Made by a program: the position numbers and the translations under genes. From Desulfosudaceae bacterium (GTDB lineage Bacteria; Desulfobacterota; Desulfobacteria; Desulfobacterales; Desulfosudaceae), in assembly GCA_963674745.2 (NCBI GenBank), contig CAXXDV010000001.1, positions 544,001 to 608,000 on the forward strand: a DNA stretch of 64,000 bases. Direction: 5' to 3'. Positions 8,630-43,053 of the stretch are shown in pieces; positions within the stretch are counted from its first letter, which is position 1; every line of letters begins with the position of its first letter. The notes beneath the pieces were generated by a model, which saw only the letters and a list, made by a program, of their open reading frames with translations, was not told the DNA's origin and searched no databases.

Positions 8630-9048
8630 TTCATGCCTAACGTTTATTGTCAAGACAAAAATTTATACATCATAAAACATAGCTGATGAAAATGTTTGGA
8701 ACTCTTTACCTGGTTGCGCGCGCAGGGAGTTTATATTCCAGCCGACTGGGTTCTGTTACCCTCATGTGCTTTTTTCCCGTTGGCATTACACGCATCATGA
8801 CGCTTGATATCCGGCATTCGGTTTCTGAAGCAGGTATCGTCACCGTATGCATCGGCCTGGTTACCGCCAGTCCTTTCTCATCATCAGCTACAATTGAGAA
8901 TCTGTAACGGCAGGCCGATACGGCCCTGTCCGAAACCAGAAAAACAGCCGCAACCGCACTGCCGTGTTTCAGGCCGCTGATGATCTGCCGAAAGAATGCA
9001 AATCCCTGCTGTTTGATATAGATATTGTAAGGGCTCTGAGATTTCCCC

Positions 9049-9103
9049 TTGACAGCCTGGCGCCAGTTATAATATATAATACGAAACGATATAGTATTGT
9101 ATT
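9049..9103 (+). promoter_or_regulatory. Candidate sigma70 promoter plus operator shared with 12032-12087
   Basis: TTGACA at 9049, an AT-rich -10 region, then AATACGAAACGATATAGTATTGTATT. Confidence 0.5.
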
Positions 9104-9182
9104 TAAACATTACTGGCGGTGGTGTTCGATACAACGGCATCAACACACCGGCAGAACTCTAATCTCAAGGGGTCGCATATCC

Positions 9183-11480
9183 ATGGCTGAAAAAAAAATT
9201 GTCCGCTCGGCATGCCGTATGTGTCACGGGGTCTGCCAGGTCCTGGTTCATATGGAGGGTGACCGGATCGTTAAAATCACCGGTGACAAAGACAGTCCCA
9301 CCAGCAGGGGATATATTTGCGAAAAAGGCCGGGCCTCGGCGGAACTTCTTTATCACCCGGATCGTATTCTTACCCCCCTGCGCCGGAGCGGAAAAAGGGG
9401 GGGGAACAAATGGGAACGAATCTCCTGGGATGAGGCCTATGATTCTTTGGCAGAAAACCTGAACCGTATTCGCAGGGAAAACGGACCGGAATATTTCGGT
9501 ATGCTGCAGGGTACAGGCCGGCCCTATACCGGCTTCACCCAGCGGTTCTGTAATGCCTTCGGCACACCCAACATGACGGGGGTGGCCCATATCTGTTATA
9601 TACCCCGGGTGCTGGCCAGCATGATAACCACCGGTCACAATATCCCTGTCTGCGATATATACGGTTTCGGCGGCGCTTACCCGGAATGTCTCATCTTATG
9701 GGGCTGTAACGTCACTGAAACCGGGGCTTCTGACGGCATGTGCGGGGGTATGGTGCAGCGCGCCATAAATCGTGCCCGTCATGTAATCGTGATCGATCCG
9801 CGCCGTATCCGTCCGGCGGCAAAGGCGGATCACTGGCTGCAGATACGCCCGGGCACGGACGGTGCCCTGGCACTGGCATTTCTAAATGTCATTATTACCG
9901 AAAATCTGTTTGATAAGGAGTTTGTAACCCGCTACACCAAGGGTTTTGACAGGCTTGTTGACCATATCAGGCAATACACACCGGATTGGGCATCGGAAAT
10001 TACACGCATCCCGCCCGAAACCATTCGAATGGTAGCCCGGCTTTACGCCGGCGCTTCATCCTCGGCCATACAATGGGGCAACGCACTGGATATGAGTCAC
10101 TGCAACTTTCAGACTGCCCGGTCGGTTCTGATCCTTTCGGCGATCAGCGGCCATCTTGACGCTCCCGGAGGTGATGTCTTCTGGGTGCCGCCGGAAGGGG
10201 TCAGGCTGAAGTCTCCTTTTGCCAACCCGTTATTCGCGGGGAACCTCTTTCTGCCCTTGAACAAATACCGGCTTGGCTTAGACGGTACTGCTTTCCGGCC
10301 GGACAGGGCAAACTGGACCCTCTGGATTGAGGACCGGATGCTGGGTATGGCGGACCCAATCAGGCGGCTTTTCCTTTCCAGGATTGAAAGGCTGGTTGCC
10401 GACAAACCACTCGGCCCGGCGATCGAACTGATGAACCGGTTGAGACGGCCCCGTTTTCCGTTTACCCATATCATCCATCCGCCTGCATTCTGGCGTTCCA
10501 TCGTCAGCGGAAACCCCTATCGGCTCAAAGGCCTCTGGATTATGGGGTCCAACCCCCTGATTACCATGACCCATTCCGAAGATATCGAAAAAAGTCTGAA
10601 ACTGCTGAAGTACATTGTTGTTTCCGATTTTTTCATGACACCCACCGCCCAATACGCGGACCTGTTTCTGCCGTCTTCGACCTGGCTGGAACGTGAGGAT
10701 GTGGTCAATATGCATAAAAACTGGTGCGTGACCGCCCAAGTGCCGGTAACACGGGTCGGGGACACCAAAGACGATCGCGAGGTAATAATCCAGGTCGCGC
10801 GACGGCTGGGGTTGACCCGGGCTTTCCCCTGGGATAACTATCGTAGATTTCTGGATTGGATGCTGGCGGATGCCGGGATGAATTTTGAGCAGTTCAGTGA
10901 AACAGGCATCCTTACCGGGGACATGCGATACTGGAAGTATAAGGATGATGGATTCCCTACGCCTTCTGGTAAGTTTGAAATATACTCGAGAATGCTTAAA
11001 AGGCAGGGCGTTTCTCCGCTACCGGTGTATCGGGAACCGCCACACTCTCCGCAGGCATCGCCGGAGGTGGCGTCAGATTATCCCTTTATCCTGATCGGCG
11101 GTACCAAAAACCGGTATTTCTTTCACAGTGAAGGACGCCAGATAAAATCCTTGAGAAAACGCAACCCTGACCCGCTTCTGGAAATACACCCCAAGACGGC
11201 TACAAAACTCGATATAGCAGATGGCGACTGGGTCTGGGTTGAAACACCGCGCGGTCGTATTAAAATGAAGGCCCTGCTGACGGAAAAACTGGCCGAGGAT
11301 GTTGTTTGCGCGCAGTATGGATGGTGGTTTCCGGAAACCGCATCGCCGGATTACAACTGGCAACGATCAAATGTAAACCGGTTGTTCGGAGAGACACAGT
11401 TTGATCCGGACACAGGCTCTGAATGCCTGAAAAGCGCCCTGTGCAAGGTTTATCCGGCCAGCCCGGACGGTTCTGATTGA
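9183..11480 (+). CDS. Cytoplasmic Mo/W-bisPGD oxidoreductase (acetylene hydratase-like clade of the DMSO reductase family)
   Basis: CRMCHGVC...ICEKG [4Fe-4S] motif, DPRR, PGTDGALAL, ADLFLP, C-terminal EIHPKTA..LDIADGD. No Tat signal; start placed at ATG 9183. Confidence 0.85.
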   Translation: MAEKKIVRSACRMCHGVCQVLVHMEGDRIVKITGDKDSPTSRGYICEKGRASAELLYHPDRILTPLRRSGKRGGNKWERISWDEAYDSLAENLNRIRRENGPEYFGMLQGTGRPYTGFTQRFCNAFGTPNMTGVAHICYIPRVLASMITTGHNIPVCDIYGFGGAYPECLILWGCNVTETGASDGMCGGMVQRAINRARHVIVIDPRRIRPAAKADHWLQIRPGTDGALALAFLNVIITENLFDKEFVTRYTKGFDRLVDHIRQYTPDWASEITRIPPETIRMVARLYAGASSSAIQWGNALDMSHCNFQTARSVLILSAISGHLDAPGGDVFWVPPEGVRLKSPFANPLFAGNLFLPLNKYRLGLDGTAFRPDRANWTLWIEDRMLGMADPIRRLFLSRIERLVADKPLGPAIELMNRLRRPRFPFTHIIHPPAFWRSIVSGNPYRLKGLWIMGSNPLITMTHSEDIEKSLKLLKYIVVSDFFMTPTAQYADLFLPSSTWLEREDVVNMHKNWCVTAQVPVTRVGDTKDDREVIIQVARRLGLTRAFPWDNYRRFLDWMLADAGMNFEQFSETGILTGDMRYWKYKDDGFPTPSGKFEIYSRMLKRQGVSPLPVYREPPHSPQASPEVASDYPFILIGGTKNRYFFHSEGRQIKSLRKRNPDPLLEIHPKTATKLDIADGDWVWVETPRGRIKMKALLTEKLAEDVVCAQYGWWFPETASPDYNWQRSNVNRLFGETQFDPDTGSECLKSALCKVYPASPDGSD

Positions 11481-20075: not shown

Positions 20076-21449
20076 ATGAAGAACACGCATATACTAATGA
20101 TTGGGAAATATTTTTTATTCATATCAGCCACTCTGTTTTTTTTCGCCGTAGCCGCCAGCGCCATGGAAAATGACATTGGCATGACAGCACAGGTCATCAT
20201 AGAGGAAAGCGTTGCCGCTTTGTGGCTCGGCAATTCTTTCAGCCCGCAATTGGAAAAGGAACAGCAGTCTTTGAGAAATATTCTTGAAAACCGTTCAATA
20301 ACCGGGGCTGAACTTGAGAGAATTGTCGCCAGGACAATGCTTTCCATATTAAATTCACAAAAAACCAGCAGATATAATTTACGTGAAATGTACAAAGGCG
20401 TCGAGGAACTGCTTGCGCCTTATATGAAAAGGGGGGAATTAAGAAAGATTGTCTGGCACCAGTTATCATCACAGTTCGGGGAAGGGAGACAATTTAATGT
20501 TAAGGTGGGAACTCTTGCTCCGGTTGGTACCCCATGGCTTGTTCTCCCCGAGAGACTGGTCGCTGAAATACAAGAATTAAGCGGCAATAAGGTTATCTTT
20601 AAGATTTATTCAGGCGGTGTCATGGGCGAGGATGTTGATGTCTTAAGAAAAATGGATATGGGCCAACTCGACGGCTGCGGTTGCACGGCGATGGGAATAT
20701 TAAAAGCAGCTCCCGAGGCGTACGTTTTTCTTCTGCCTGGGCTGTTCCGTAATTATGAAGAAATCGATTTTGTCCTAAATAAGTTCAGAAAAATGATAGA
20801 CAGGACTTTTGAGGAAAAAGGATATATGCTTGCCGCCCTGGTTGACACCGGCAATTTTTATCTGTTTTCAAGATTCAAAACAGACAACCTGGCCGGGATA
20901 AAAAAAAACAAAACAATAACGACGTTTGGGGTCATTGAAACCGAATTGTTTGATGAACTCGGGATCCATGCCATCCCAATTTCGATACCAGAGATAATAC
21001 CGTCCTTAAACACGGGCATTGCTGATACCGTCGTAGCCCCGGCTTCATGGATGCTGGGGATGCAAGCTTATCAATACGTAAATTGCTTCATCAAGGAACC
21101 GTTGTTTTATTCACCCGCAGCCGTCATTGTAAGTGCCAAAATTAAGGACAAGTTGCAGAGAGATATCAATTTGTCGGAGACGGTTGCACATAACATAACG
21201 GAGCTGACCATTTTTGAATTCATCTCTCTTGAAAAAGATTGGAAGGCCCAGACAAGGCATTATGAGAAAAAATGTCTTGAAGCCTTTATTTACAAGGTGG
21301 GGATGAGACCCTTGGTGCTTCCCCCGGAAGACAGGGCGGTTATTGAACAGGCCGGGAAAAAGGTCTGGGAAAAACTCGCCGGCGACGTTTGTCCCCGGGA
21401 ACTCCTGAATGATATCCTGCGGGCTCTTGAGGAATATCGACGGAATTAA
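20076..21449 (+). CDS. TRAP transporter substrate-binding protein (DctP-like) with extra N-terminal domain, copy 1
   Basis: Signal peptide, about 110-aa extension, KVGTLAPVGTPW, YSGGVMGE, GQLDG. Confidence 0.8.
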   Translation: MKNTHILMIGKYFLFISATLFFFAVAASAMENDIGMTAQVIIEESVAALWLGNSFSPQLEKEQQSLRNILENRSITGAELERIVARTMLSILNSQKTSRYNLREMYKGVEELLAPYMKRGELRKIVWHQLSSQFGEGRQFNVKVGTLAPVGTPWLVLPERLVAEIQELSGNKVIFKIYSGGVMGEDVDVLRKMDMGQLDGCGCTAMGILKAAPEAYVFLLPGLFRNYEEIDFVLNKFRKMIDRTFEEKGYMLAALVDTGNFYLFSRFKTDNLAGIKKNKTITTFGVIETELFDELGIHAIPISIPEIIPSLNTGIADTVVAPASWMLGMQAYQYVNCFIKEPLFYSPAAVIVSAKIKDKLQRDINLSETVAHNITELTIFEFISLEKDWKAQTRHYEKKCLEAFIYKVGMRPLVLPPEDRAVIEQAGKKVWEKLAGDVCPRELLNDILRALEEYRRN

Positions 21450-21506
21450 CATAAAAGGAATCAAGTGCAAAACAACCTAAGCCTTTCCCTATATAAGGAT
21501 GAAAAT

Positions 21507-21623
21507 ATGAGCGATGAAAGAACTTATAAAAGCACATGCCGGATTTGCCACCGCGGATGCGGGGTGCTGATGCATGTCGAGGACAGGGTTGTCAAAATCA
21601 AAGGCGACACAAATTCTCCCCTG
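21507..21623 (+). pseudogene. Mo-bisPGD oxidoreductase remnant, 5' part
   Basis: MSDERTYKSTCRICHRGCGVLMHVEDRVVKIKGDTNSPL, homologous to the N-terminus of 9183-11480. Confidence 0.85.
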
Positions 21624-22135
21624 TTCGACGACATTAGAAAGAGAGAGATGAGAGCACTAACCTTTGGATTTTTTTTGGTGTTTATACTCACCACATGCGC
21701 ATACGCGGATGACACCAAAGACTTAAATCAGATGGGGATTCCGGGGGGAATGGCTGGTTGTTTTGGCACCGTTCAGTCTGAGGTTCTGCAGGTCTTTTTG
21801 GCCGAAGACAATGGTGCGCGATTCAGGGCCTATCAAGTGAAATGGAAGGGCCAGGACATAATAGTCTCAGATATGTTTGGCACAACTGACTTCAAAGAGG
21901 GTGATATCATCACGTTCATGGCCCAAAACATCGAAGTCCCGGCTAACGGCAAAAAACTGAAGATGCTTCAGTTCATGATCATGGACACGAGCGCTTTTGC
22001 TCCGGAACAGTAGGGCGTCGAACAACACGTTGGTAAGGGACCGCAATGGGCGGCCGGTTTCGGCTCTTGCCAACTGCTTTTATTAACGAGTTTTTGCGGG
22101 TGGCCCGTTCCCCTTGCGCCCCCAAACCTTGAACG
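21624..22135 (+). mobile_element. Integron-type gene cassette inserted at a secondary site
   Basis: Left junction G|TTCGACG; complementary CGTCGAAC just after the ORF stop; long imperfect hairpin ending TTGAACG|. The host gene resumes in frame after 22135. Confidence 0.75.
21648..22013 (+). CDS. Hypothetical exported protein (cassette-borne)
   Basis: MRALTFGFFLVFILTTCAYA signal peptide; 121 aa beta-rich body. Confidence 0.65.
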   Translation: MRALTFGFFLVFILTTCAYADDTKDLNQMGIPGGMAGCFGTVQSEVLQVFLAEDNGARFRAYQVKWKGQDIIVSDMFGTTDFKEGDIITFMAQNIEVPANGKKLKMLQFMIMDTSAFAPEQ

Positions 22136-22234
22136 AACAAAGGCCGCCTGTGCCCCAAGGGAATGGTCAGGATTGAACACCTTTATCATCCGGACACCGC
22201 TGCGAAATATGGTATTCAAAAGGAGAACAAATGA
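22136..22234 (+). pseudogene. Mo-bisPGD oxidoreductase remnant, 3' part
   Basis: NKGRLCPKGMVRIEHLYHPDTAAKYGIQKENK*, supplying the fourth Fe-S Cys and then a C-terminal-domain-like HPDTAAKYGI. Confidence 0.8.
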
Positions 22235-23064
22235 CCCTATTCAATCTGTCCGGCAGAGTAGCCCTGGTTACGGGGGCTTCACGAGGATTGGGCCGGGCAA
22301 TATCGGTTGCCCTGGCCGAAGCCGGGGCTGATGTCGTCCTGACGGACATACTTGTTGAAGACGCCTTTGATTCACGGGAAATGTCCGGGTACAGCCCGCT
22401 GGCGGCTTTTTTTTCGCAGACGGACGGGGTGTATACGAAATCAACCGCTGAAGATATCCGGTTATCGGGACGGCGTAGCATGGCGCTGCGGATGGATGTC
22501 ACTTCGCCGGATGAAATACGGGATGTCATCGCACGCGTCAAGGATGAACTCGGCCCGGTCGACATCCTGGTAAACAACGCCGTTATCATGGACAATTTCG
22601 GCCTGATCGAAAAGCAGCGTCCCGACTTGTGGGAGCGGGATCTCAAGGTGAACCTCACCGGAGCTTTTAATTGTATTCAGGCGGTTTGGCCGGACATGAA
22701 AGAACGCCAATGGGGCCGGATAGTAAATATCTCCTCATTCGTGGCCATTATGGGGGCTTTTGCCCAGCCCAGTTACGGGGCGTCAAAGGCTGGACTTCTC
22801 GGCCTTACCAGGTCGATGGCCCTGGAGGGTGCCCGCAGTGGCATAACCGCCAACGCGATTCTGCCCGGGTTTATCCAAACCGAAGCGGTCAAACTGCATG
22901 ATCCGGGGAAACTGGAGCGGATAACGGCCCGCTGCCCTATGCAACGCCTGGGCCATCCTGAAGAAGTGGCATCCCTGGCGGTATTCCTGGCATCTGATGC
23001 GGCAGCCTATATTACCGGTGCCGCTATTCCTGTGACAGGAGGAATGGACCTGTTTCATTTTTGA
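22231..23064 (+). CDS. Classical short-chain dehydrogenase/reductase (3-oxoacyl/3-hydroxyacyl-CoA type)
   Basis: TGASRGLG, LVNNA, NISS, YGASK, PVTGG. Confidence 0.92.
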   Translation: MTLFNLSGRVALVTGASRGLGRAISVALAEAGADVVLTDILVEDAFDSREMSGYSPLAAFFSQTDGVYTKSTAEDIRLSGRRSMALRMDVTSPDEIRDVIARVKDELGPVDILVNNAVIMDNFGLIEKQRPDLWERDLKVNLTGAFNCIQAVWPDMKERQWGRIVNISSFVAIMGAFAQPSYGASKAGLLGLTRSMALEGARSGITANAILPGFIQTEAVKLHDPGKLERITARCPMQRLGHPEEVASLAVFLASDAAAYITGAAIPVTGGMDLFHF

Positions 23065-23191: not shown

Positions 23192-23278
23192 GCATTGTGA
23201 TAAAACAGGAAGAAAATTCCGTATACAGATCCTCTGAACCATGAATTGAAGGCAGAACGCGTGTCGCAGAAAAAACTG

Positions 23279-24106
23279 ATGAAAATATCGGAATTAGGTG
23301 AAAAGACCGGGGCAGCAGCTTCGACCATACGGTTTTATGTCAAGCAGGGCCTCCTTCGCGAACCGATCCGAAAAGGCAGGACCGTCGCCTATTACTCTCC
23401 CCTGCATGTCGAGCAACTCAAATACATACTCGCCCTTAAAAAGAAGAACAAATTTACTTTACATGAGATAAAACAACGGGTTGCCGACAAATTCAAGGAC
23501 ACGCCGGATGATGATCCCGGAAGGCCGTTTATCGGAAAACAGGAAGAGATTATCAGGGCGTCCGTCGATCTTTTCCTCAATAAAGGTTATCATGACACAA
23601 CTATAACCGATATTGTTGATAACGCCGGTATCGGCCGGGGCACATTTTACGCTTATTTTGCCAACAAGGAGGAACTTTTCTGGGAATGCGCCGATAAACT
23701 GTTCAAGGATCTTGACACGCATTTTAATATTATAAAAAACGAAGGCGATGTGCTTTCCCGGTTGAAACGCCGGGCTTACGAGTTTCTGTTAACCTTTCCC
23801 ACCTTGATCAATCTGATCAACATTATCAGGGGGGCGGCAGTAAGCGATTCTGAAATATTTAAGGAAAAGCTTAATATAATGATGCGGCAATTGGTGGCAC
23901 CGATTGTCAATGACCTTGATATCGGTATGCGAAATAATGAAATCAGAGATACTGACAGTACCGTATTAGGACATATCTTAATGGGTGCGGCGGAATATAT
24001 CTCATATTATGCTTATGAACTCGAATTCAACCTGGACAATGACCGGTTTCTGGCCTTGTTCCAGGAAGGATGGGACATGATCTATTATGGCGCCCAAAAA
24101 GATTAA
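23279..24106 (+). CDS. MerR-HTH/TetR fusion regulator, copy 1
   Basis: MKISELGEKTG..STIRFYVKQGLL (MerR HTH) then IIRASVDLFLNKGY..IGRGTFYAYF (TetR HTH). Start may be 23246-23279. Confidence 0.85.
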   Translation: MKISELGEKTGAAASTIRFYVKQGLLREPIRKGRTVAYYSPLHVEQLKYILALKKKNKFTLHEIKQRVADKFKDTPDDDPGRPFIGKQEEIIRASVDLFLNKGYHDTTITDIVDNAGIGRGTFYAYFANKEELFWECADKLFKDLDTHFNIIKNEGDVLSRLKRRAYEFLLTFPTLINLINIIRGAAVSDSEIFKEKLNIMMRQLVAPIVNDLDIGMRNNEIRDTDSTVLGHILMGAAEYISYYAYELEFNLDNDRFLALFQEGWDMIYYGAQKD

Positions 24107-24980
24107 CACACGAAATTCAAAAACCTATTACCGGATTTCCGAGATCTCGCGTATAAGCGGGGTGCCGTCCCAGACGATTCACTATTACGTCCGGGAAGGG
24201 CTGCTGCTGCCGCCGGTCAAGACCAGCAAAACCATGGCGTATTACAGCGAAGATCACCTGGAAAGGCTGTATTTCATAAAAAAACAACAGATCGAGTCAA
24301 AACAGCGCTTAAAGGAGATCAAGCAAAGACTGGCCGATGACTTGCCGGCTGCTGCTCCGGAAGACCATAGGGACAAAGAGGGGCCGTTACCTTTCGCGCA
24401 ACAAAAAGAAACAATCCTTCAAACCGCCATTAATCTGTTCACGCAAAAGGGATACGCGGAAACCAGCATTACCGATATTGTTAATACAGCCGGTGTCGGG
24501 CGCGGAACGTATTACCAGCTTTTCAAAGACAAGGAGGATTTGCTGCTGGAATGCGCGGACCGTGTTTTCTTCGAGCTTTACAGTCATGTCTGGGAAAAAT
24601 TGCAAAATGAAACAGATATGATGAAACGGTTACAGATTCGATTTGAAGCGTATATAAAGAGTCACCCCAGGTGGCGGGACATGATGGATATTATTAAAAG
24701 CCTGGCCAGCACAAATAACCAAAAAGGCGTCCAGAAACACAGGGAAATCCTGCAGCAGATAACCCGGCCCATTGCCCGGGAAATTGACAGGGCAGCCCGA
24801 CAGCAGAAAATCCCGGGGGGCAACGACACCTTCGGCACTATGGCGGCATACATGCTTCTGGGTGCCAGCGACTATTGTGCCCGGCTGCATTTTGAACAGG
24901 GTCATGACATAAACCTGTTGTTTGATCATATCACCCAGTTGGTGTTTGAAGGGATCCGATATAGATCCCGATCTTCCTGA
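24087..24980 (+). CDS. MerR-HTH/TetR fusion regulator, copy 2
   Basis: YRISEISRISGV..QTIHYYVREGLL then ILQTAINLFTQKGY..VGRGTYYQLF. Confidence 0.85.
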   Translation: MAPKKINTRNSKTYYRISEISRISGVPSQTIHYYVREGLLLPPVKTSKTMAYYSEDHLERLYFIKKQQIESKQRLKEIKQRLADDLPAAAPEDHRDKEGPLPFAQQKETILQTAINLFTQKGYAETSITDIVNTAGVGRGTYYQLFKDKEDLLLECADRVFFELYSHVWEKLQNETDMMKRLQIRFEAYIKSHPRWRDMMDIIKSLASTNNQKGVQKHREILQQITRPIAREIDRAARQQKIPGGNDTFGTMAAYMLLGASDYCARLHFEQGHDINLLFDHITQLVFEGIRYRSRSS

Positions 24981-25227: not shown

Positions 25228-26622
25228 TTATGGATGCGTTTTCCTGTATTCCTCGAGCGCTTTGGTCATGTCGCGAACCAGGTCAGCCGGGAAAACCTTG
25301 CCGGACAGCTTCTGCTGAACGGCTTTGCCTGCCGCTTCAAGCTTTTTCAGGTCTTCGGGAGGCAGCGTGATGGCCTTCATGCCGCACCTGGTCTCGAATG
25401 CCTTCAGGCTTTTTTCTTCAAAGATTCTGATCTGGCGCCTCCACCCCTTCTCCAGGGCGATAATTTCAGCAATGACAATTTCCTGAATGTTATAGGCGAA
25501 CACCGCTGATATGCCGAGCTGTTGCTGGATTCTGCCGATCGTGCTGGCTTTGGAAACCACGACTCCCGGTGAATAGACCAACGGTGGTATGATGTAATAG
25601 TTCATGAATTGATAGGCCTGCATACCCAGCACCCATGCCGGGGGCGCCAGGTTCAGGTCGGTCTTGCCGGTGTTAAGTGACGCGACAACATCGGGGACCG
25701 GAACCGGTGTGGCATTTATCCCCAGTTCCTCATAGAGGGGTGCTTCGATAATACCAAACCATGTCATTGCTTCTTGTTTGGCAATATCCGCCAGGCCGGG
25801 TGTTTTGTACTTTGAAAATAAATAGAAAAAGCCGGTGTCAAATAGTGCCCACAGGGTATAACCGTTCTTTTCAAACCCTTCATCCAGCTGCTTTCGGAAT
25901 TTTTCAAAGATATAATCGACTTCATCATAGTTATTAAACAAACCGGGCAGCAGCAGGGCCGATGCTTCCGGGCAGCTCGCCAGCACACCCAGGGCGGTGC
26001 AGCCGCAGGCGTCGAGCTGCCCGGCATCCATTTTATCGAGGATTTCCTCATCATCCCCCATAACACCGCCCCCGTAAATTTTGATCTGAATTTTTCTTTC
26101 GCTTAATTTTTCTATTTCCGGAAAGGCAATCGTTTCCGGCACACTGAGCCAGGGTGTACCCGGCGGCGCCAGGGTGCCGACTTTATATAATACGGGGTCG
26201 TCTTTGGTGATCACGGATGAAAGCGCCCGCCACAATACGGCTTTTATCGTTTTCCAGTCCAGGTGCGGGAGAAGAAGATCGTTGAAGCGGTCCGGAAAAT
26301 TCACTACGGCATACCGTGATGTTTTATGGCGCTCCAACAAAGACAGGAACATCGTCTCCAGCATGCCTTCCAGCTGAACCTCATTAACGGCACCGGTAGC
26401 CAGCATTGTTTTCAAAAACTGTTGCCGCTGCAGTAACCCCGGATCGGTTTCCCCGCCCACCCACATCGTTTCAAGACTTTCCCGCATTATGTCTTGAAAT
26501 GATTTGATGTTGTCATCAGCGCCGGTGACGCCAGGCGGCAGTCCGATGGTGATGATCATGAAAACAGAACAAAACAACCATCTCTTCATAACAATCCCGG
26601 TTCTGATATCAAGTAAGGCCAT
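25228..26622 (-). CDS. TRAP DctP-like binding protein with extra N-terminal domain, copy 2
   Basis: AGGAGG RBS, signal peptide, KVGTLAPPGTPW, YGGGVMGD, GQLDACGC. Confidence 0.8.
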   Translation of the reverse strand: MALLDIRTGIVMKRWLFCSVFMIITIGLPPGVTGADDNIKSFQDIMRESLETMWVGGETDPGLLQRQQFLKTMLATGAVNEVQLEGMLETMFLSLLERHKTSRYAVVNFPDRFNDLLLPHLDWKTIKAVLWRALSSVITKDDPVLYKVGTLAPPGTPWLSVPETIAFPEIEKLSERKIQIKIYGGGVMGDDEEILDKMDAGQLDACGCTALGVLASCPEASALLLPGLFNNYDEVDYIFEKFRKQLDEGFEKNGYTLWALFDTGFFYLFSKYKTPGLADIAKQEAMTWFGIIEAPLYEELGINATPVPVPDVVASLNTGKTDLNLAPPAWVLGMQAYQFMNYYIIPPLVYSPGVVVSKASTIGRIQQQLGISAVFAYNIQEIVIAEIIALEKGWRRQIRIFEEKSLKAFETRCGMKAITLPPEDLKKLEAAGKAVQQKLSGKVFPADLVRDMTKALEEYRKTHP

Positions 26623-26697: not shown

Positions 26698-28095
26698 CTA
26701 ACGGGCTGCCCGGAAATCTTCCAGCGCCTTTCGAATATTGTCGATCAGGTCTTTTGGGAAGAGTTTCCCGGTCAGTTTCTGCTCGACCGCCCTTCCTGCC
26801 ATTTCAATGGCATTCTGGTCTTCGGGTGACAATGTTATGGCCTTCATGCCGCATTTTATTCCAAAGGCCTCCAGACTTTTTTCTTCGTATGTTCTGATCA
26901 GCTCCTTCCATTCAGGCTCAATAGCGTTGAATTCGGAGACGAACAGTTCCATGACATTGTTGGCGTATGTATCAGACACTCCCATCTCTTTTCGCAACCG
27001 GTCCCGAACGCTGGAGTTTACCAGCACAGCCGCCGGAGCATAAAAAACCGGGGGGGTGAGAAAAAAATTCGTGTACTGGTAGGTCTGCATGCCCAGCATC
27101 CAGGCTGGTGGGGCCATAATAACGCTTGCCTGGCCTGTGCTCAAAAGGTTAATGACATCAGCCAGAGCTACAGGCTCAACCTTACTTATGCCCAGTTCCT
27201 GATAAAAAAGGGTCTCTATGGCGCTGTTTAAGTATACAGAATTTTCTATTTTCAAGCCCGCCAGGCCGGAAACTCTGTTTACTGAAAACCAGTGCAAATT
27301 ACCGGTATCAACAAGGGTACACAGAATGTAACCGTTTTTTTCAAATGCCTGGTCCAGCGTTTTTCTGAACGTATTGAAGATGTAATCTACTTCTTCGTAA
27401 TTTTTGAACAGTCCGGGCAGCGACAATACACAAGACACAGGGGATGCTTCCAGCATGCCCAGGACGCTGCAGCCGCAACTGTCGAGTTGACCGTCTCTCA
27501 TTTTTTTTAAAACGTCCGAATCCTCTCCCATGACCCCGCCGCCGAAAATTTTGATTAAAACTTTTCCTCCGGTCAGTCTCTTAATCCTTGGAAAAAGGAT
27601 GTTTTCGGGCACATTAATCCAGGGCGTTCCCGGGGGGGCAATGGCGCCGACTTTAAATATCATAGGGTCTTTGTTCTGGAGTGGCGAAGCGGCAACACGC
27701 CATATGATGGTTTTTGCTGTTTCCCACTCCATGCGGGGGGAAAATAGGGCGTTAAATCGTTCTGAAACATTGTTTAAAATATACCGGGATGTTCGATCAC
27801 GGTCCAGTACCGGTAGGATTGCCTTTTCAAGCATGCCTTCAAGGGCCTCTTGAGTTATGATGCCGCTTGACAGCATGGCTTTCATTGCCTGCTGGCGTTG
27901 CTCGAATTCCACAGGAAATTCCCGGCCGGTCCACAATGCGGTCAAGCTGTCCTGCAGAATGCTTTGAAAGTTATCAGCGTCTTTATCCGCTGCCATGGCG
28001 GCAAGTGGCAGGCCGGCAACAGCCGTAACGGTTATAACGGCAATCATCGTCAACAGCCGTGTCTTGGCTGAAAACGAACGGCTTCTAAACATCAT
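26698..28095 (-). CDS. TRAP DctP-like binding protein with extra N-terminal domain, copy 3
   Basis: Signal peptide, KVGAIAPPGTPW, FGGGVMGE, GQLDSCGC. Start 28095 or 28125. Confidence 0.8.
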   Translation of the reverse strand: MMFRSRSFSAKTRLLTMIAVITVTAVAGLPLAAMAADKDADNFQSILQDSLTALWTGREFPVEFEQRQQAMKAMLSSGIITQEALEGMLEKAILPVLDRDRTSRYILNNVSERFNALFSPRMEWETAKTIIWRVAASPLQNKDPMIFKVGAIAPPGTPWINVPENILFPRIKRLTGGKVLIKIFGGGVMGEDSDVLKKMRDGQLDSCGCSVLGMLEASPVSCVLSLPGLFKNYEEVDYIFNTFRKTLDQAFEKNGYILCTLVDTGNLHWFSVNRVSGLAGLKIENSVYLNSAIETLFYQELGISKVEPVALADVINLLSTGQASVIMAPPAWMLGMQTYQYTNFFLTPPVFYAPAAVLVNSSVRDRLRKEMGVSDTYANNVMELFVSEFNAIEPEWKELIRTYEEKSLEAFGIKCGMKAITLSPEDQNAIEMAGRAVEQKLTGKLFPKDLIDNIRKALEDFRAAR

Positions 28096-28245
28096 CCCCC
28101 CCCTTGTTATCATTATTGCCTTCAAGCATCAGCCTGGAAAATGCTTTCTCTGCCGCCGGGGCTCAGCCAGGGCAGTTTTCCTTACGCCCTGGCTTCGGGA
28201 CAGTGCGGATCTATGTCCGGTAGGAAACATTTATTTTTCTGGTAC

Positions 28246-40854: not shown

Positions 40855-43053
40855 TTAAGCTTTGGTCAGTTGCGCTTTTATACCCCAAGCCACGTCAAAG
40901 CCGGAGACCGGATCTTCAACCGGCGCGACCAGAGTATTGATATTGACGCCCTTATCAGCCAGATAATCATCAAAGGCGGCATGGCCCAGCCCCCTCGGCA
41001 TGGCGATAACATCATTGGCAATGCCCTCGGTCTGATTGATCTTGACCTGGGCTTTACCAACCGGTGTCTCCAGTATAACCGACTGTCCGTCTTTGACCTT
41101 AAACTTTTTGGCTGTCACTTCGTTTATTTCAATAAAAACATCTGTTTTCTTATTTGCTTTTTTCAGAACGGTGTCTGCTACGGTTTTAATAACAAACGGC
41201 GGGGTCCCGATGCTACCACCGCTGATTCGCATACAGTCATAAGGAATAAGCGTTAATTCAGGCACCTGGGGTTTTGCTTCGGCCAGTTTGACCAGCGCTG
41301 AAAAATCCATTTGACCGGCCGGTGCCATCGCTTCTGCCGCCGTGGCCAGGGTGGATTGCGCCAGATACCCCTTGGATGAAATAGTACCCCAGTTATCGGC
41401 CAGGGTCTCTTTTAAGCAGTCTTTGTAGGTTCCCCAGGGGAAGGCCCCGGCCACGGCACCGCCCAGGGCATTGGCCAACGCGATCAACACATCGCCGGGG
41501 TGCTTGGTGTCAAACACCGGTTTAATTACCGGCCTGGCAAGACCGACCATCGGTTTGGCCAGCCCGGCCGTGGTGGGAAAGTCCTCGTACCGCTCAAGAT
41601 AAGAATGTAACGGCAGAATATAATCGGCCTGGGCCGCTGTATCGTCCATGTAAGCGGAAAGGCTGACAACCAGCGGGATCTTCTCAAAAGCGGTCTTTAC
41701 GTTCTGTGAATCCCGCAACGTGAACACGGGGTTGGCATCACAGACAAACAACGCCTGCACCGGTGACTGGGCTTTGCTGTTGACCTTCTGTATCAAACGG
41801 TGAGGCAAACTGGCGGCATCGCGGTATTCGGCCGTCCCGGCCCCATCCAGGCGGGGGGTGTCCAGGGATTTTTCAGCCACGGCGTCAAGCTCCGGAGCCG
41901 GCCAGTTGATGTAATCCGGCGCCGCGGCCAGACGGATACCGCCGGATCGGTTGATACTGCCCGCCAGCGCGTTCAAAGACAGGACCGCCATGGCATCCAG
42001 GCTGCTGACCGGATCCTGAGCCGAACCGTTGCCGCAGATGGCCACGGGCCTGGACGCTTTGGCAAACGCCCGGGCCAGTTTTTCCAGTTTCGGCACATCA
42101 ACCCCGGTTGCGTTGGCCACATCTTTCGGGCTGTACTTTTCATTCAACAATTTCCGGAAGGCACCGAAAGACGGGCTGTTGGTTTCTATTGCCGCGGCCT
42201 GCATACCGTCGCGGATGATGATATTGGCCAGCCCCAGGGCCAGGACCGCTTCCGTCCCCGGTTTGATCGGCACCCAGGTATCGGCCTTGGCAGCCGTGTT
42301 GGACAGTCTGGCGTCCACTTGAACCAGTTTCGCACCATTGTCTTTCCAGCTGCTGTTGGCCTGAAACATTCTCACAGGAGATCCCCACCCGTCCAGGACA
42401 CCGGCGGAAAAACTTAAAACATAGGTGCTGTTCTCAAAATCATAAGCCGGTATACCGGATTTGCCCAGCATTTTGCCGGCTGCCAGTGCCATGGCATCGT
42501 CAGATGAAGGCAGGGTAACATAATTAGGCGAACCAAAAGCGGTTAAAAACCGCTGTAAAAGCCGACCGGTCGTATTATTGCCGTTACCGGCGATCCCGGC
42601 CACGGTGGCAGCTTTATCATTGTTTCTCAAATCATTCAATTTGCCGGCAATATCCGTAAGGGCCTGGTCCCAGCTGACCGCCTTGAAGGTTCCGTTTTCT
42701 TTTTTTAACGGCTTTTTAATCCGCCAGGGGCCATACAGAAGCTGCAAACCCGCCAGGCCCAGGGTGCAGATGCCGCCGTGATTAACGGGATGGCCTTCCT
42801 GCCCCTCAATTTTAACCGCCCGATTGTCGATTTTGCGGACGGAAATACCACAGCCGCCCGGGCACAGGGTACAAACGGATTCCGCTGTGGAAACCGCCCC
42901 ATCCGGCGGAACAGGGACTTCGTTGGGCATATACCGAAAGCTCTGCGTCCAGATGGATAGATCGTCCGTCAGCTTTAACGGCAGCGGCGTCAAGGCTGTT
43001 CCCACCGCGCCGCCGGCCACCAATGCTAAAAAGCTTCGTCTGTCAATCTTCAT
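40855..43053 (-). CDS. qrcB: Qrc molybdopterin-oxidoreductase-like subunit
   Basis: Tat signal DRRSFL, CTLCPGGC..C, DMSOR-like fold; position between qrcA and qrcC. Confidence 0.9.
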   Translation of the reverse strand: MKIDRRSFLALVAGGAVGTALTPLPLKLTDDLSIWTQSFRYMPNEVPVPPDGAVSTAESVCTLCPGGCGISVRKIDNRAVKIEGQEGHPVNHGGICTLGLAGLQLLYGPWRIKKPLKKENGTFKAVSWDQALTDIAGKLNDLRNNDKAATVAGIAGNGNNTTGRLLQRFLTAFGSPNYVTLPSSDDAMALAAGKMLGKSGIPAYDFENSTYVLSFSAGVLDGWGSPVRMFQANSSWKDNGAKLVQVDARLSNTAAKADTWVPIKPGTEAVLALGLANIIIRDGMQAAAIETNSPSFGAFRKLLNEKYSPKDVANATGVDVPKLEKLARAFAKASRPVAICGNGSAQDPVSSLDAMAVLSLNALAGSINRSGGIRLAAAPDYINWPAPELDAVAEKSLDTPRLDGAGTAEYRDAASLPHRLIQKVNSKAQSPVQALFVCDANPVFTLRDSQNVKTAFEKIPLVVSLSAYMDDTAAQADYILPLHSYLERYEDFPTTAGLAKPMVGLARPVIKPVFDTKHPGDVLIALANALGGAVAGAFPWGTYKDCLKETLADNWGTISSKGYLAQSTLATAAEAMAPAGQMDFSALVKLAEAKPQVPELTLIPYDCMRISGGSIGTPPFVIKTVADTVLKKANKKTDVFIEINEVTAKKFKVKDGQSVILETPVGKAQVKINQTEGIANDVIAMPRGLGHAAFDDYLADKGVNINTLVAPVEDPVSGFDVAWGIKAQLTKA

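Follow-up and report, generated by a model that had tools for sequence, protein, structure and literature searches.

A lone integron gene cassette of 512 bp, cut at both ends to the base at the crossover point of an integron integrase, interrupts the [4Fe-4S]-coding remnant of a Mo-bisPGD molybdoenzyme gene. It was very probably inserted there in trans by one of three integron integrases resident in the genome, acting on a double-stranded secondary site. In laboratory work, integron integrases insert cassettes almost wherever a short motif occurs. To our knowledge, few natural cases allow the two junctions as well as the empty site to be read at single-base resolution, and such cases are rarer still outside the clinical class 1-3 integrons. 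In the present case the conserved Fe4S4 domain serves as a ruler and reveals a precise, duplication-free G|AA insertion in an environmental bacterium. The window, i.e. the whole stretch of DNA that was analysed, comprises 64 kb (G000:C1:544001-608000, corresponding to CAXXDV010000001.1 positions 544,001 to 608,000, forward strand). Positions refer to this window unless a contig (C1, C3) of the genome G000 is named. The features are collected in Table 1.

Table 1. Features of the inserted cassette and its host gene, integron integrase genes, attC junctions not followed by TT and the four isolated attC sites outside the window.
Feature	Position	Strand	Details
Host stub, left half	21507..21623	+	39 codons; PF04879 profile positions 2-36, E 2.2e-8
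Integron gene cassette, linear integrated form	21624..22135	+	512 bp; begins TTCGACG, ends ...GAACG
3' part of core site R'	21624..21630	+	First 7 cassette bases, TTCGACG; from the sequence
Cassette ORF	21648..22013	+	121 aa; N-terminal signal-peptide-like segment, predicted six-stranded beta core
attC site	22016..22135	+	120 bp; crossover base is the final G, 22135; model R1 and family alignment
Inverse core R'' GTCGAAC	22017-22023	+	From the sequence
Host stub, right half	22136..22234	+	NKGRLCPKG...LYHPD with fourth Cys; PF04879 positions 38-55 of 55
intI locus	C3:2348261-2349205		TIGR02249
intI locus	C1:2117407-2118342		TIGR02249
intI locus	C3:27977-28915		TIGR02249
Non-TT junction, AA	window		
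Non-TT junction, AT	C1:1484730		In array
Non-TT junction, AT	C3:411731		Isolated
Non-TT junction, TC	C1:1902199		Isolated
Non-TT junction, TA	C3:371086		In 4-site cluster
Other isolated attC site	C1:1704457		
Other isolated attC site	C1:1902095		
Other isolated attC site	C1:2178715		
Other isolated attC site	C3:411616		

The interrupted gene and the limits of the insert

The ATG at 21507 opens a frame reading MSDERTYKSTCRICHRGCG...GDTNSPL, in which the [4Fe-4S] motif is represented by its first three Cys and whose last codon closes on the crossover G, 21623. The same frame resumes at 22136 with NKGRLCPKGMVRIEHLYHPD, followed by 12 codons and the stop TGA at 22232-22234, which overlaps the ATG (22231) of a short-chain dehydrogenase (SDR) gene. 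Both pieces match the Pfam family PF04879 (Molybdop_Fe4S4, 55 positions), the right one with an E value of 0.038 that is weak alone because just 18 residues align. As the two matches abut in the profile, the pieces follow one another within one domain, without loss or duplication, and the 512 bp between them are an insertion. The preliminary description had proposed that removing 21624-22135 restores the uninterrupted frame ...GDTNSPL + NKGRLCPKG...LYHPD, and this proved correct. A full-length paralogue within the window (8964-11480) also aligns across the join, over stub residues 1-59 and with 50% identity (tblastn). This similarity stops at residue 59 of 71, the final 12 codons being unrelated.

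The insertion had been placed in a molybdoenzyme gene. That description holds for the Fe4S4 domain, which is split, and fails for a whole or working gene. Among the Mo-bisPGD enzyme domains the host presents PF04879 alone, in two pieces, and lacks PF00384 (Molybdopterin) and PF01568 (Molydop_binding); all three domains are present in both full-length paralogues of the window. The host being a 71-codon stub, the cassette should be said to lie in the remnant of a molybdoenzyme gene. It may have entered a full-length gene whose 3' part was lost later, or an already dead stub. An operon of the type 'Mo enzyme then SDR' was considered among the paralogues as a template for the stub and discarded, the gene after paralogue 40855-43053 encoding a ferredoxin-type protein and not an SDR.

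At the DNA level, no match to the stub was detected in 40 relatives, and at the protein level its left piece is best matched (65% over 34 residues) by a full-length enzyme located elsewhere. In the same-genus genome G001, the orthologous DctP-like gene is directly followed by the dehydrogenase gene (TAA then ATG), with neither stub nor cassette, and in G002 and G007 an amidohydrolase gene stands in front of the SDR gene. The empty site that relatives had been hoped to provide was found neither in any of these 40 genomes nor in 4 sequencing runs from 2 studies, all kept as contigs, among which no contig joined across the insert as an empty site or an excision product would. The left junction is spanned, with zero differences, by one contig of 210 nt obtained from a second sample of that study.

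Elsewhere in the window, three paralogous DctP-type solute-binding proteins are encoded at 20076-21449, 25228-26622 (-) and 26698-28125 (-), and they are similar in length. The first one, which was scanned against Pfam, has about 140 extra N-terminal residues ahead of the DctP domain, and its DNA has matches at many other places in this genome and in its relatives. Two regulator genes are adjacent at 23246-24106 and 24087-24980, the former combining a MerR-type N-terminal domain with a TetR-type domain (Pfam).

The left limit of the cassette is defined in two ways. First, the TTCGACG starting at 21624, already read as the beginning of the insert (G|TTCGACG), complements exactly the CGTCGAA within the inverse core of the same cassette (22016-22023). 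Second, four metagenome cassettes with relatives of the ORF match the window from the core onwards. Their cores read G|TTCGAC, G|TTCGGC or G|TCAGCC and are followed by a purine-rich ribosome-binding site and an ATG about 24 nt on; the sequence preceding the core is an attC arm in these cassettes and the host gene in the window. The right limit is given by ten paralogous attC copies in the genome, all alignments to which stop at window base 22135. These copies end in ...CCGTGGACG or ...GGATG, then continue with TT and cassette-specific sequence. The window copy ends in ...CCTTGAACG and is followed by AACAAAGG, the host codons N-K-G.

The junctions are thus CTG|TTCGACG and ...GAACG|AACAAA and the target is CTG|AAC, a single G being common to them. 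No target duplication appears in the sequence beyond this crossover G, in agreement with the earlier observation that an extended one is lacking, and neither terminal repeats nor a transposase were found at the insert in the sequence or the ORF list.

The attC site and the cassette gene

The insert had been described as ending in a roughly 120-bp imperfect hairpin that opens with the complement of the cassette start. Indeed, CGTCGAAC sits at 22016-22023, at the opening of a 120-bp hairpin region. Compared with the consensus RYYYAAC, the inverse core keeps AAC and has R instead of Y at the fourth position. The cassette start TTCGAC(G) exactly complements R'', so that this change is compensated, and the pairing between core and inverse core (RYYYAAC, G|TTRRRY) is restored by circularising the cassette in silico. 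The genome contains 10 other copies of the final ~115 bp (22021-22135), with 78-89% identity.

For a covariance model, R1, we aligned 17 further attC sites of the genome, which represent several sequence families, and left the window copy out; R1 is therefore a genome-specific model and not that of IntegronFinder. RNAalifold folded the 17 sites into 21 pairs forming an R box, a spacer, an L box and a long stem, with bulges on both arms in the consensus structure and in the folds. Compensatory changes are seen in 13 of the 21 pairs. Paired cells reach 95.2% in the alignment, against 78.6% in shuffles (0/500 as high) and 35-50% when the partners were slid. R1 matches the imperfect palindrome of the window at 22011-22142 over the full model length, with 76 bits and an E value of 3.7e-19, and no other match below E 0.01 was obtained in the 64-kb window with filters off. 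A search of 21000-23000 against Rfam with E values up to 10 gave five matches (E 3.2-9), far below the gathering score and none of them an integron element. The covariance-model check suggested earlier for the end of the insert, carried out here with R1, therefore identifies an attC site, and the fold of the circularised form speaks in the same direction (z -3.46 relative to mononucleotide shuffles).

This attC is among the weakest of the genome, ranking 146th among the best 150 sites listed with R1. Out of the 21 model pairs 7 are non-standard in it: 3 in the R box, owing to the host AACAAA that stands in place of TTCGAC, and 4 elsewhere. Private substitutions are also seen in it, at positions that are identical in at least 9 of the 10 paralogues. 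The calculated energy of the bottom strand is -21.4 to -22.1 kcal/mol in the integrated form and -28.6 kcal/mol, with the R box paired, in the in-silico circularised form. The integrated bottom strand folds no better than dinucleotide shuffles (z -0.66, 42/200 as good), and its z relative to mononucleotide shuffles is -1.74, the ten paralogues ranging from -2.6 to -4.2, an interval into which the circularised form (-3.46) falls. From these values we infer a once-normal site, deprived of its core partner by the insertion and slightly decayed since.

Such a degraded copy with an unremarkable integrated fold, together with the lack of an empty site or excision product among the 40 relatives and 4 runs, could also be expected if illegitimate or homologous recombination, or a transposon of which only a footprint is left, had happened to carry a cassette to this place. 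However, both ends lie exactly, to the base, at the integrase crossover, the right one set by 10 paralogous attC sites and the left one by the inverse-core complement and 4 homologous cassettes. Moreover, terminal repeats, target duplication and transposase are all lacking, and the host domain is intact in sum. We consider a route of this kind highly improbable and close to refuted.

The cassette contains one ORF, starting at the ATG 21648 after a leader of 24 bp, as first described; its putative signal peptide was read by eye from the N-terminus (a hydrophobic stretch, then AYA|DD). The ORF is present in a single copy in the genome, with no paralogue. Its predicted structure has a mean pLDDT of 77.5, with residues 40-111 mostly above 90, and shows a six-stranded beta domain behind a signal-peptide-like helix. 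No Pfam family was detected below E 0.06, and Foldseek retrieved nothing from the PDB at E <=0.001, its OB-fold-like matches having E values of 0.03 or worse. OB-fold proteins were also retrieved by VIA-align, with Z up to 5.8, within the range that the tool calls common, and the best Atlas score was 0.87 (<0.9), with DUF5666 and OB-fold as leads. We regard the cassette product as a putative small secreted beta-barrel protein.

We identified 17 relatives of this ORF (87-151 aa, 49-78% identity), all unnamed, and 11 loci were fetched (3 genomes, 8 metagenomes), which represent 8 distinct contexts. In three of them (L039, L045 and L046), the relative has an attC-like hairpin on either side, with inverse-core and core motifs and bottom-strand energies of -18.9 to -25.6 kcal/mol; L045 and L046 share the cassette core TTCGAC/GTCGAAC with the window. 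Only the upstream core is present in L042/L043, a transposase-remnant-like sequence (by eye) follows the relative in L040/L041, and L036/L044 look like an ordinary chromosomal gene context. L037 and L038 contain weak ORF matches (43% and 33%) without cassette features. Since R1 gives only weak matches on the foreign attC sites (E 0.019-0.9), these calls rest on inspection and folding. Homologs of the ORF had been predicted to occur in cassettes; this is the case in 3 of the 8 distinct contexts, and in L036/L044 the homolog looks like an ordinary gene.

The DctP-like gene, the stub, the cassette ORF and the dehydrogenase gene all point one way. Neither a sigma-70-like promoter nor a + strand terminator was found in 21200-22400, and between its two crossover limits the cassette consists of one ORF with a short leader and an attC site. 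Transcripts of the ORF would likely originate from read-through of the operon. The frame of the stub enters the cassette ORF in frame, and ORF callers therefore give a false 182-aa protein (21465-22013), which the protein database lists as P0001 and labels PF04879. The host-cassette fusion announced in the preliminary description is thus real as an annotation, and it teaches that such an insertion can yield a false fused ORF labelled as an Fe4S4 protein.

Resident integrases, attC sites and the target

Three intI loci pass the NCBIfam model TIGR02249 with 415-429 bits (cut-off 265), and they are full length, without stops. Each of them adjoins an array in the expected divergent orientation, and each of these arrays includes a member of the window-type attC family. 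At least 150 attC sites were detected in the genome by the R1 covariance search. An iterated nhmmer profile drifted to the majority families, 11 window-family members were restored by a separate profile, and the union amounts to 250 sites. These ~250 sites, obtained from iterated profile searches plus the window family, form 15 clusters, the largest with 89 sites. The genome-wide search for intI and similar attC sites recommended earlier thus returned both. A finder combining a regular expression with folding (strict RYYYAAC...GTTRRRY) had yielded 40 candidates and missed the window family, because its inverse cores often depart from RYYYAAC; it was replaced by the profile and covariance searches.

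The main clusters are located at C1:1480176-1531334, C1:2100025-2116298, C1:2266569-2289075, C3:1821287-1857797, C3:29809-38092 and C3:2330342-2347590, in addition to smaller ones. The largest spans 51 kb, and several of the large arrays lack an integrase in their vicinity. At 39-43% GC, the arrays are richer in AT than the genome (50.5% GC). The same cassette end occurs four times in three different arrays (C1:1504429-1504561, C1:2267223-2267355, C1:2269817-2269949 and C3:1834515-1834647), with identical 25 bp before the attC and a near-identical attC, which indicates cassette duplication or exchange between arrays. Near-identical tyrosine-recombinase genes split by TAA were found at four loci, L005-L008 (C1:1739981-1740487, C1:2102784-2103290, C1:2282749-2283252 and C3:2332314-2332799), each within a cassette array or bordering one; they score 86 bits with the integron-integrase model, below its cut-off.

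Five attC sites are more than 10 kb from any other. The window site is the most isolated, its nearest neighbour being 336,206 bp away and the nearest intI, on the same contig, ~1.55 Mb away. It is thus a single attC with no other attC or intI nearby, as in a SALIN.

The bases following the attC are TT in 243 of the 250 sites (237 recognized by the regular expression and 6, with a variant base before the G, by eye). Among the other 7, one is partial and has no core, one has no G and five are followed by another dinucleotide. Such non-TT junctions concern 3 of the 5 isolated sites (AA, AT, TC) versus 2 of the 245 clustered ones (by eye). These counts fit the idea that isolated sites are secondary-site insertions.

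The preprint 10.1101/2022.09.11.507474 gives 5'-GWT-3', cleaved after the G, as the attG consensus of IntI1-3. The target G|AA agrees with the G and the W of this consensus (Loot et al.), which was measured for IntI1-3 only, and departs from it at the T. As reported for IntI1 by Frumerie et al. 2010 (PMC2811028), changing TT to AA reduces recombination 700-fold only when both sites are changed, a GTT-to-GAA change in one partner site leaves it near wild type, and the first nucleotide alone must be common to both sites. Since GAA is tolerated in one partner, the combination of a GAA target with a GTT attC lies within the IntI1 tolerance described there. The target G|AA is therefore unusual, not unprecedented, and works like an attG site despite its off-consensus third base. 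Contrasting G|AAC with GWT-type sites, as was initially done, was right for the third position and overstated otherwise, given the fit of G and W and the acceptance of GAA by IntI1 in that report.

The cassette might alternatively have been inserted at an ordinary G|TT or G|AT site later mutated to AA, which would agree with the GWT consensus that the preprint 10.1101/2022.09.11.507474 gives for IntI1-3 and with the private substitutions that the attC has gained. But the AA begins the AAC codon for the Asn that starts the Fe4S4 profile match of the right half (38-55). Two independent codon-restoring changes are unlikely, and they are not needed if GAA sites are usable, as the mutants of PMC2811028 indicate. 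We give very little credence to this possibility.

Least probable of all is that the cassette is the last survivor of a decayed array (CALIN) and the flanking Fe4S4-like pieces are unrelated leftovers, as the many arrays without a nearby integrase and the same-genus relative with nothing between the two flanking genes might suggest, for the flanks are consecutive parts of a 55-position domain in one frame with neither overlap nor gap, and no second attC was detected in the 64-kb window with filters off, the nearest being 336 kb away.

Proposed origin and related systems

Insertion by a resident integrase into a secondary site would have proceeded as follows. A circular cassette made of one promoterless ORF and a ~120-nt attC of the lineage's own type would have been excised from a resident array or newly acquired. 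Its folded attC bottom strand would have recombined, between the G and the TT of the core, with a target ...CTG|AAC... within the Fe4S4-coding part of a Mo-bisPGD gene, the G alone being common to both. Recombination at this G would leave CTG|TTCGACG and ...GAACG|AACAAA, nothing being duplicated or lost. After insertion, the core site would be unpaired from the inverse core and the attC would gain further stem mismatches, so that the cassette is probably a fixed and poorly mobile fossil. The intact ORF, in the direction of the flanking operon, may be transcribed by read-through.

Classical secondary sites in plasmids are of the GNT or GWTMW type. As in cassettes at such sites, the crossover here is of the integrase type and lies outside attI and attC, with no complete core on the right side; those are resistance cassettes in plasmids, whereas the present one is chromosomal and belongs to an environmental bacterium.

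According to the preprint 10.1101/2022.09.11.507474, integrases have been shown to insert cassettes into genomic attG sites, and SALINs occur commonly. The element described here is a SALIN, very probably formed by attG-type insertion. It shares with that system the single cassette with its single attC, remote from intI and from other attC sites, as well as the interruption of a chromosomal gene, the crossover at the core G without duplication and an orientation that allows read-through. It differs by its target, GAA and not GWT, by integrases that are the organism's own and not IntI1-3, and by its long attC (~120 nt), of a type common to the genome's large arrays. Furthermore, the event is here natural and fixed, with a degraded attC, whereas theirs was experimental. 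The attI1 mutants of Frumerie et al. (PMC2811028) offer the same combination of a GAA double-stranded partner and a GTT attC with a common first-base G; as described in that work, they are engineered attI1 sites recombined by IntI1 in E. coli, whereas the target here is a coding sequence without attI features.

The window thus provides a clean natural example of a process shown in the laboratory, which will be a modest surprise to the specialist. It speaks for an origin of isolated cassettes (SALINs) through integrase action and not through array decay and, with four further isolated sites, it adds one natural data point on the target rules of a non-clinical integrase. More tentatively, and with rather less than even chances, the resident integrases may often seed cassettes off-array at G|NN sites, and the present insertion may have inactivated a full-length molybdoenzyme gene, the 3' 2 kb of which would have been lost later. 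If this were true, the integron would have acted as a natural insertional mutagen and operon remodeller in a catabolic operon, leaving the secreted protein of the cassette under operon control.

One of the other isolated cassettes lies between fmt and rsmB (C3:~411126-411731, L053 ~1027-1632). It comprises a 112-aa ORF and an attC, with a right junction G|AT, and seems to start in the last fmt codons, the stop codon being changed and the protein end remaining the same. In same-genus relatives, just 24-60 bp separate fmt and rsmB. A GTGATTAAGTG-like tandem-unit repeat flanks this cassette in inverted orientation (L053:1129-1180 and 1672-1723, i.e. G000:C3:411228-411279 and 411771-411822). This repeat is multi-copy, occurring at many places in G000, G001, G002 and G003, and looks like a REP-like or miniature element family.
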